Positions 43,201 through 45,559 of a DNA stretch of 64,000 bases are shown here, in pieces. Position 1 is the first letter of the stretch; each line of letters starts with the position of its first letter. Where the stretch lies: assembly GCF_003704095.1 (NCBI RefSeq), contig NW_020846105.1, positions 124,001-188,000 of the forward strand, given 5' to 3'. The stretch comes from Pocillopora damicornis (lineage: Eukaryota). A model generated the notes under the pieces. That model had not been told where the DNA came from and did no database searches. It saw nothing but the letters and a program-made list of their open reading frames with translations. A program made the translations under genes and the position numbers.

Positions 43201-45559
43201 AGCAAAGCCTTGTCTCCATAAGTTCGCACATTGGTCAAAATCGGTCCCACAATAGCTTCTAGTTTCTCTTTGTCAACCACTGCAGGACGTTTACAAAGAT
43301 CTTGTAATTCCTTATAATTAAGAAGCTCAAAATCAAAGCTTCTTAAAACAGAGTTTTGTGCACTGACTGTAGATGAGTTAGCTTGGGCAGGAGCATGTAC
43401 TTTTGTCTTGGTTATAGAATGGCCATTACGGGGAGACAATTTGCCAGGTTTTGCATTACCAGGACGTCGTCTAACCTTGAGTGACCTTTGATCCAGAACT
43501 TTTTCAATATCACTCAGAGAAACTCCTAAGAAAAAGGAATGTAACAACAAAATCTGATTTTCTATTTCAAACAAATACAAAGCTCTAAAATAAGTCATTG
43601 CTTTGCTCAACACTTTTATCATCATCATTACTATCATCATAATAGTTTCTTTACTTCATGGGTAGACTTCCCTCTCTTAAACCAGCAATTCCCCCAATGT
43701 CTTAAAACTGTCTCCCTGCCCCCCCTCCAGATATCTGTTTCTCTCTGACATTGACAATCCATAAAAATGTACCCAGCAGACAATCATTGTCACTCATCTT
43801 CCCCTTCCCTAAACACAGCTTTTACTCACCTGCCTTGGCACATTTCACTAGTGTGAAATACAAAACATCAGCTGCTTCCCAAGTAATCTCCTCTTTTGTT
43901 TCAGATTCACACAATTCCTCTGCCTCTTCACGGATCTTGGCATGCAGCAGTTTACTGTCATTGTACAAGCGACTTGTGTAGGATCCTGGAGGAGCTGACT
44001 CTTTGCGGGACTTTAATGTATTCATCAGTAATGGTAAACCATTGTTATCTCCAAAGCAAGTCCATGTGTTAAGGTGGCAGAATCCTTGTCCAAGCTGACG
44101 TACAACAAACTTCAGGGTATCACAATCACAGTCTAAATGAATTTGCAATAAATCCTGCAAACAAAATTTTATTTGAAAATTCAATCCTTAAGCTCAGACA
44201 AGACAAAGATTCTTTGTGTTAGAAAAAGAGAGTTAGCTCCAAAGTTTGCTTTTTCCAAAATCCAAAAAGTAGACTTTAAGGGCAAGAGCTTGCTTTCTTC
44301 ACCAACTCAGACTTAGACATCATTTTTTTTCATACTCAAGAATTTACCTGTTGGTTTCCAGATGTTTCCCCTTTCCTCCATAATCCTCTTTTTCTTGAAA
44401 AATACACCCCTTTCTTGGTTTTCACTGCTTCTTGAATACTCTCAGAACTTGAATAACACAATCCTAATGCAATATTATGCTCATCTGTCTGAGAATGACA
44501 ACAAAAAAGTGTGCAGTTTAATAAAAATTAAAGAAAAAAAACTGAGTTATGTTTCACATTGAGTCCCACACCTCTGCCTCATCAGATTCAGACTCTATCA
44601 TGCATCTGACATCTTATCTTACTTTCTGTACCTTATCAGCTCCTTCAAAACATACCACCCCCTCCCTTCTCTCTCCAAGCCACCTCCTCCCTCAACAAGC
44701 ACTGGTTGAAATCAATGAGGGGTGTGCACAGGGTTTTACTATGAGAAGTGGTGGGGAAAGGATCCTTAACTAGCATCTTACCTGCATTTGGTGGCATTTC
44801 AAGTTGTTCTACCATAGTAAATCATTACCTTTTCTGGACATGCACCTTAAAACCTCCCACAACTGACCCATGTCATATACATAAGAGACTTACCACAAGA
44901 GTTGGGTAGAGTCCATCAGATCGGTCACTTTTAAGACAGGATGCGATAATCTCTCCAAGACTGAGATCATTTAGCAACCAAGTTGTACTTAGTTGAACCT
45001 GAACTCCGAGGAAGTGAAGCTGTGAGATGGTTGAGGACAAAATCACCCCATCGATTGATAGTATGAGTTTCACATCGTCACACAGGTGGGTCTTTAGTTC
45101 CTTTATAGACTCGACAAGGCATGATTCATCAGCAAGGGAAGCTTTTTTAGGACACAAAAGAAAAGTGCTAGATCTGTGTTTTAGGTCATTGATTTCTTCG
45201 GCCAACTCAGCTACAGAGTACTCTTGATCAGGTAATTTGCAGACAATCCTTTCTCTGGGTAAAAATTCTCCCAGGCTATGCAGTTGGTGATCTTTGTTAA
45301 GGATGACACTGTTAGCACCAGAATCCAGTATATCTAAGACCTCGTCTTCAGAATTCAGTTCAATTTCTACGCAACAAGAGGTCCTATGCATAACTTTCTT
45401 TCCAAATTCTTTTGTCTCCTGGACTTTATCAAGATAAACGATGGTAAACTCTGGGCACAAAGAAATTGTATCGAGGCAGCCTGTTACATCTTCAATTTTT
45501 TCCCCATCCTTTGGATCCACTAGAGTCCCTCCTTTCAGATATACACTTGGGATTATCAT
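40251..45559 (-). CDS. HIS4: Histidine biosynthesis trifunctional protein (PR-AMP cyclohydrolase / PR-ATP pyrophosphohydrolase / histidinol dehydrogenase; fungal HIS4-type HisI-HisE-HisD fusion)
   Basis: Nine in-phase exons: 44894-45559, 44348-44488 (ALGLCYSS...[18 protein letters not shown]), 43830-44154 ([39 protein letters not shown]), 42981-43525, ~42502-42688 (VGLYVPGG), ~42120-42289 ([18 protein letters not shown]), ~41496-41627 (DLLSQAEHG), ~41088-41240 (YAPEHL), 40251-40550 ([17 protein letters not shown]; stop TGA). Confidence 0.95.
40688..40885. mobile_element. Family B-related MITE in the last intron of the HIS4-like gene
   Basis: ttgaccctttaccccacaagagtga ... ggtgtagagggttaa terminal inverted repeats. 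More degenerate relatives at ~25069-25250, ~25630-25818 and ~41370-41470. Confidence 0.55.

Follow-up and report, generated by a model that had tools for sequence, protein, structure and literature searches.

What is the N-terminal region of His4, and where does it come from? The first 160-220 residues of the product of HIS4, a classic gene of yeast, were reported in 2007 to be devoid of a detectable homologue; the accessible part of that survey (Fani 2007, PMC1963479) describes the N-region of fungal HIS4 as being without any homologue and proposes a structural role for it. A gene of the same type lies in the genome of the coral Pocillopora damicornis, within the stretch of 64,000 nucleotides of contig NW_020846105.1 that was analysed here and is referred to as the window. 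An earlier note, made from this sequence by eye, had read the first ~200 residues of the coral protein as a complete but catalytically eroded HisA-type (beta/alpha)8 barrel. Our analysis makes it quite probable that residues 1-207 are a HisA-related barrel, in all likelihood a dead enzyme, that has been retained to give structural support to the HisI-HisE core.

Structure and transcript of the His4-type gene

The gene runs on the minus strand, which the earlier note had left unstated, from an ATG at 45559; the plus-strand frame across the bases of exon 1 is rich in stop codons. It encodes a protein of 872 amino acids in nine exons with GT-AG borders and zero internal stops, in the order barrel, HisI, HisE, HisD. 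The coding part of exon 1 (44894..45559, minus strand like all exons that follow) comprises 222 codons for the barrel and the first HisI residues, and RNA contigs reach 5' to at least 45630. Exon 2 (44348..44488) codes for HisI (PRA-CH), exon 3 (43830..44154) for the end of HisI with its DCDCD and CH-x5-C motifs and for HisE (PRA-PH), and exon 4 (42981..43525) for the end of HisE, a variable linker (residues 404-456) and the start of HisD. HisD continues through exons 5 (42502..42688), 6 (42120..42289), 7 (41496..41627, with the EHG motif) and 8 (41088..41240, with the PEH motif) and ends, together with the stop codon, in exon 9 (40251..40550). Each of exons 2 to 9 is supported by RNA junctions and by the exon join, and exons 3, 4, 5, 6 and 9 in addition by Pfam, which on the downstream exons returns PRA-CH, PRA-PH and Histidinol_dh. 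The protein carries DCDCD at 277, CH-x5-C at 295, EEAEE at 345, AGPSE at 672, EHG at 699 and PEH at 765, a set of motifs which we take to be diagnostic of HisI, HisE and HisD.

All eight splice junctions are present in RNA-library contigs of four out of four runs from four studies, the end of exon 1 at 44894 being joined to 44488. Because of these eight junctions and the open nine-exon frame, the barrel belongs to one spliced frame with HisI, HisE and HisD, and the N-region, PRA-CH, PRA-PH and Histidinol_dh thus occur together as in K14152. Contamination and a pseudogene were considered as well and are ruled out by the introns, the spliced contigs in four studies and the open frame. As had been proposed, the barrel is contained in one large exon, exon 1 (45559-44894) holding all of residues 1-207. 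The extent first given to it, 44920..45559, is right as to its start but not as to its end, which lies near residue 207 at about 44939, so that the pseudo-HisA barrel, as delimited by homology, predicted fold and residue losses, occupies 44939..45559 on the minus strand. The idea that exon border and domain border coincide was rejected, since exon 1 continues past the barrel into the start of HisI.

The closest named relative of the coral protein is that of Oculina patagonica. The RNA runs are near-identical to the window, with one difference within exon 1, a T>C change at window position 45219 in three of four runs which turns barrel residue Y114 into C; P0002 also has C at this place. Two intron stretches, 40667-40855 and 41234-41611, stand out in each of the four runs by very high contig depth and numerous loose ends and are probably small dispersed repeats.

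Homology of residues 1-207 to HisA

The six motifs by which exon 1 had been aligned to HisA are all found in the minus-strand translation, namely a run of 11 residues at 1-11, FTIVYLD at 38-44, a run of 18 residues at 70-87, ERIVCKL at 103-109, LILSIDG at 165-171 and ISQLHFLGV at 178-186, and the protein does begin at the same position as HisA. Curated resources are silent on this region: residues 1-207 and exon 1 have no Pfam match, PF00977 included, up to E 1, no NCBIfam match up to E 1e-4 and no direct match among PDB sequences, and the full-length alignment of eroded domains (A1), used as a profile against the PDB, retrieves no HisA chain up to E 1.

A different picture emerges from the nearest relatives. 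When the Oculina orthologue was used as query with its first 420 residues, 788 proteins were retrieved, and among the best 120, which were examined, four (P0005, P0038, P0043 and P0102) have a clear His_biosynth domain in the same N-terminal slot (E 1e-38 to 4e-44), with HisA models as the best match. On a profile of these four intact fused N-termini, which are HisA domains heading bacterial and amoebal HisA-HisI-HisE fusions, the window domain scores 36.5 bits; reciprocally, a profile of 109 eroded N-termini gives the four intact domains 36.5-47.5 bits. Stripped of its last 18 residues, the helix adjoining HisI, the window domain still scores 28.9 bits on the four-sequence profile, as compared to 5.2 for the best of 2000 shuffled sequences, 1369 of which were reported, and -2.2 when its residues are read in reverse, and the match is therefore beyond chance. 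On a larger fused-HisA profile it scores 23.8 bits, and -1.0 on one built from 32 HisF proteins encoded in the operons of the fusions; in the ESM Atlas, PF00977 clusters rank first for the domain (0.90-0.92). Coral N-termini reach 28.5-41.8 bits on the intact profile as opposed to at most 21.6 for named fungi, and many fungal N-termini lie near zero when scored singly. The homology is thus visible only through the fused-HisA profile and not through the curated family profiles, but residues 1-207 are almost certainly homologous to HisA. Total lack of profile similarity to HisA or HisF, which would have spoken against the earlier reading, is not what we find, even though Pfam itself says nothing. 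Of the descent from HisA or HisF put forward there, the HisA part stands and HisF ancestry is ruled out by the two profile scores; in the bacterial operons, moreover, hisF is a separate gene.

Predicted fold

AlphaFold2, given an alignment of 98 sequences with no intact HisA among them, models the barrel at pLDDT 91.5 and pTM 0.88, with eight barrel strands alternating with helices. All 43 rows listed by Foldseek are HisA, His6/HISN3, PriA, HisF or HisF-derived designs (best E 2.1e-7); the first row is a HisF, and since HisA and HisF rows are interleaved Foldseek alone is insufficient to tell the two apart. In a wide structure search HisA 4gj1 ranked first (Z 20.6, rmsd 2.5, 201 aligned), three Z units above the next row, the other members of the top five being 1qo2, 2agk, 4evz and 4wd0 and the first unrelated barrel appearing at Z 14.7. 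Structure prediction and fold comparison thus return a TIM barrel, and residues 1-207 are predicted to fold as a full eight-stranded HisA-type barrel, which agrees with the complete barrel originally proposed. With HisA and PriA (PF00977, TIGR00007; 4gj1, 5ahf, 1qo2) the coral domain shares the predicted fold, the start, the strand order and a residual sequence signal. Different from them, however, it has about 207 residues instead of 245, its loops are shortened and the catalytic and phosphate-binding residues are missing.

Loss of the HisA active site

E. coli HisA served as the ruler for the active site. Of 123 fused barrels considered, five were dropped on length or motif, and each of the 118 intact ones keeps the equivalents of D7, D50, G79-G81, R83, G102, D129 and W145 as well as an acid at 176 (Glu), G177, G203-G204 and G225; this invariance is in part a matter of kinship, because the 118 barrels are close kin of one query. 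Just one of these positions is kept in the window, a Gly at 204. The residues found there at the HisA sites are Y7, Y42, E65/I66, N69, N88/K89, P110, D170/G171 and S191. In the alignment D7 of E. coli HisA is hence replaced by Y7 and D129 by P110, just as the earlier note had it for the catalytic Asp of strand 1 and the Asp of strand 5, and the claim that both Gly-rich phosphate-binding loops are gone is borne out as well. Two further losses had been overlooked: the loop after strand 6 with the catalytic acid at 176 is deleted or unalignable in the window, and the Trp hairpin is missing, as it is from 109 of 109 eroded domains, among which GGG-x-R does not occur once (0/109). We take D176 to be the label of the catalytic acid in enteric HisA, and the phosphate sites of HisA to be GGG-x-R with G-S/T, and S/A-GG with G-x.

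Neither catalytic position and neither phosphate site of HisA thus survives in the coral barrel, and the Asp of strand 5 and the Trp of the loop are gone too, so that the term catalytically eroded is appropriate. In the related PriA, the accessible part of PMC5404923 names Asp9 and Asp169 as catalytic residues, with Asp128 and Trp139 also needed, and gives the catalytic site of strand 1 as Asp9/Asp11. As judged from its residues, the domain would very probably have no isomerase activity.

A separate isomerase

The coral genome contains a HIS6-type gene (G000:C538), detected with TIGR02129, whose exons retain RPCID, LQIGGGI, VIDLS, the loop Trp and HAADVE-G. HisF is found in a separate HisH-HisF gene, and a PF00977 search of the genome retrieves this gene alone, that is, neither the fused barrel nor HIS6. 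The first open frame of the HisH-HisF (HIS7) gene (L001 784-1950 and L002, G000:C130) has 388 codons and covers HisH and the start of HisF, and a small Cys-containing ORF (L083 4790-5212, plus strand) lies head-to-head with the HIS6 gene and close to it. The set of His4-type gene, HIS6 and HisH-HisF matches the list for robust corals in the accessible part of PMC6214176 (Ying 2018), which comprises a K14152 gene with introns, a separate ProFAR isomerase (K01814) and HisHF; three Pfam domains are given there for the K14152 protein and its N-terminal 200 residues are left undiscussed. A dead fused HisA barrel would explain the need of fungi and corals for a separate HIS6. In five bacterial genomes with a HisA-HisI-HisE fusion, no HIS6-type gene was found above the cut-off, and in four of the five no full-length HisA candidate other than the fused barrel exists beside HisF, while the fifth carries one more full-length gene of PF00977, its third, at G002:C1:4694020-4694688.

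Evolutionary origin of the fusion

Fungal His4 (K14152) is built like the coral protein, with N-region, HisI, HisE and HisD in the same order and at similar length, and the coral protein is 60-63% identical to two fungal His4 proteins in HisIE and 62% in HisD. The coral barrel is the same N-region and is not specific to corals, and the region which is without homology in the accessible part of PMC1963479 is here tied to HisA. The His4 type of gene and the coral histidine pathway were known already, whereas the HisA origin of the N-region is new to the literature that we found; in a search which took in few subscription journals no paper came up in which the His4 N-region is identified as HisA or as a TIM barrel, and the accessible part of PMC7284861 holds nothing on His4.

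Bacterial HisA-HisI-HisE fusions have the barrel in the same N-terminal slot and with the same junction as the coral protein, but in them it keeps all active-site residues, and the HisD of their operons is not the source of the coral HisD. Bacterial fusions with ProFAR isomerase are described in PMC8102479 (Witek 2021), where fungal His4 is placed near Myxococcales; in its accessible part that paper draws no link from the fused isomerase to the His4 N-region. In eukaryotes, Acanthamoeba has a HisH-F-A-I-E-D-G fusion with HisA before HisI (Rice 2018, accessible part of PMC6029752), and there as well as in P0038 from Protostelium nocturnum HisA directly precedes HisI-HisE-HisD, as does the barrel of the coral. 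The HisIE of P0038 falls into the same eukaryote clade as that of the coral; P0038 differs, however, in its intact HisA, its extra HisC and HAD domains and its operon-type HisD. It is one of the long fusions HisA-I-E-(D)-C-HAD, the others being P0005, P0050 and P0013, the latter two with eroded barrels.

How common is the fusion? In homologues of P0043, His_biosynth and PRA-CH occur together in all 120 listed matches. At 66 of 77 GTDB loci, a sample biased by the A-I-E-D query with which they were fetched, HisA and HisIE form one ORF, which as a rule follows hisF directly and precedes hisD, and at 9 of the 77 A-I-E-D is a single ORF. The bacterial operons (L004-L080, for instance L021 3050-9300) are ordered hisC(-HAD), hisF, hisA-IE, hisD; in their HAD domain, which hits the hypothetical family TIGR01548, we see a candidate histidinol phosphatase. 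Among the 150 representatives nearest to exon 3, as classed by our own thresholds, the region upstream of HisIE is an intact HisA in 5 and barrel-like but eroded or partial in 76; 24 have another upstream region and 45 have fewer than 100 residues upstream. P0262, P0293, P0300 and P0278, barrel-HisIE proteins of ~400-430 residues, have half-worn barrels and so represent graded intermediates.

A HisIE tree of 62 rows was rooted with 11 unfused HisIE, that of E. coli among them. Its 26 eukaryote-type rows are united in a single clade (98/98), which is nested among the HisA-IE fusions of bacteria (100/99). To this clade belong corals, fungi, Protostelium, three long fusions and an ichthyosporean-type protein, so labelled on the strength of its EukProt id. 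Coral HisIE likewise scores 210-243 bits with nine full-length main-group fusions versus 60-83 with the 11 unfused HisIE. HisD gives another answer: the coral domain scores 383 bits with E. coli HisD and 180-238 with operon-type HisD, and a HisD tree of 38 rows, in which E. coli is the only outside reference and the bootstrap had not settled, separates E. coli-type and operon-type groups at 100/100 and joins coral HisD with that of fungi and the ichthyosporean protein at 94/96. Since coral HisD groups with E. coli HisD and away from the fusion operons, the inherited unit is HisA-I-E. The suggested ancestor, HisA/HisF-HisI-HisE-HisD, hence holds for HisA-HisI-HisE but not for HisD, which is of other origin, and a single four-domain bacterial ancestor of the whole protein is ruled out by the HisD tree. 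In the same tree P0050, whose barrel is eroded, groups with the intact P0005 and P0038 and not with fungi and corals, and there are hints that the barrels of P0050 and P0013 eroded independently of those of fungi and corals.

We propose that a HisA-HisI-HisE fusion, of a type widespread among bacteria such as Myxococcota, Planctomycetota and Gemmatimonadota, entered the eukaryotes and that, on the way to fungi and animals, a HisD from another source was joined behind it. A separate HIS6-type isomerase would have taken over the ProFAR step, after which the fused barrel may have decayed on its active-site face but not in its core or on the side opposite; the order of these events is our reconstruction. 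As a dead HisA, the N-region is no longer without an origin, and opisthokont HisIE would stem from a bacterial HisA-HisI-HisE fusion. The living series of intact, partly worn and fully eroded forms is a natural model of an enzyme becoming a pseudoenzyme. In the coral copy the HisA signal is stronger than in the fungal ones that were compared, and this copy speaks for a vertical descent of the pathway in corals.

Role of the barrel

But why would a dead isomerase stay in place? The best-kept positions among 50 eroded representatives are G81 (100%), R104 (98%), D79 (88%), L195 and L78, and of these G81, D79 and R104 sit in helix-to-strand turns, that is, on the face which in such barrels is opposite to the active site. 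P0253, a relative of 410 residues consisting of an eroded barrel and HisIE, was modelled at pTM 0.88 with an alignment that included intact fusions, and this predicts a fixed position of barrel and HisIE relative to each other. A structural part is the favoured reading because the turn residues are conserved, the fixed position is predicted and the ligand equipment is gone; that this structural role is a needed one we consider likely. Of the scaffold, channelling or allosteric role suggested before, the scaffold is accordingly best supported, whereas the loss of the ligand-binding residues leaves channelling or allostery through binding of ProFAR without support.

The dead barrel could also be a mere passenger that folds harmlessly and is hard to excise, since it carries the start codon and runs into HisI. 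Sequence conservation lends this some weight: to three close relatives the barrel is 83, 54 and 56% identical and the linker 68, 46 and 52%, as opposed to 85-96% in HisIE and HisD (for the 54-56% relatives, 46-52% in the linker and 85-89% in the enzyme domains), and to two fungi and the ichthyosporean protein barrel identity is 19-27%. The barrel being barely better conserved than the linker, constraint appears weak and passive retention is conceivable; HisIE, moreover, exists unfused and without a barrel in E. coli and 10 others. Yet at least 160 residues precede HisI in 116 of the top 120 matches, albeit in a search that favoured proteins with this region, the full eight-strand fold is still confidently predicted, G81, R104 and D79 are conserved across eroded forms and the P0253 model predicts a fixed position of the barrel against HisIE, so that we regard a passenger as improbable. 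Co-option for regulation or channelling, whereby the barrel would bind ProFAR or another ligand or dock HIS6 or HIS7 in a histidine metabolon, is attractive in that the ancestral HisA took as its substrate what the neighbouring HisI domain made (according to the pathway in the accessible part of PMC6214176) and in that the barrel stays fused across fungi and corals. It is nevertheless more doubtful still, as neither phosphate site is left, the Trp hairpin and the loop after strand 6 are missing and the active-site face of the eroded forms shows no conserved set of residues.

Retention of ProFAR isomerase activity by way of other residues, or gain of a new catalytic activity, might be argued from the completeness of the predicted barrel, from Asp44, which is kept in four of four coral sequences, and from the Asp that 49 of 105 non-coral eroded domains retain in the D7 column. 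In the coral sequences, however, this column holds Tyr in three and is missing in one, whose start is truncated; together with the deleted acid loop, the vanished phosphate sites and the separate HIS6 in the genome this renders retained or new activity very unlikely. Hardly any credence can be given to a barrel of other ancestry, either HisF or an unrelated TIM barrel that resembles HisA by fold alone. The HisF in first place in Foldseek, the interleaved HisA and HisF rows and the lack of a direct family match in Pfam and NCBIfam would be in keeping with it, but not the -1.0 bits on the HisF profile against 23.8 on that of fused HisA, the intact HisA in the same slot of the nearest relatives with its graded intermediates, and the nesting of the eukaryotes among HisA-IE fusions in the HisIE tree. 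We return to the structural part as the preferred reading, and this role now becomes testable in yeast. A bolder extension, for the present a long shot, would be that HisA became a pseudoenzyme repeatedly in the fusion whenever a stand-alone isomerase was available, and that the dead barrel of fungi and corals is a required docking platform which holds HisI-HisE and recruits His6 or His7.

Other genes in the window

A multi-exon gene on the plus strand (45700-48860) is arranged head-to-head with the His4-type gene at 140 bases from its ATG, which suggests a shared promoter. We presume it to encode a Yip1-domain protein (YIPF1/2); Pfam gave no match on two of its short exons. Elsewhere, the window contains a gene for a CUB-Ig receptor tyrosine kinase (25720-29830, plus strand) whose kinase domain lies in a single long open frame, a RING-like exon at 33670-34107 on the minus strand and a long coiled-coil-like protein at 54421-57603 on the plus strand, both of them without a Pfam match, and a Reeler-domain exon at 8620-9117 on the minus strand.
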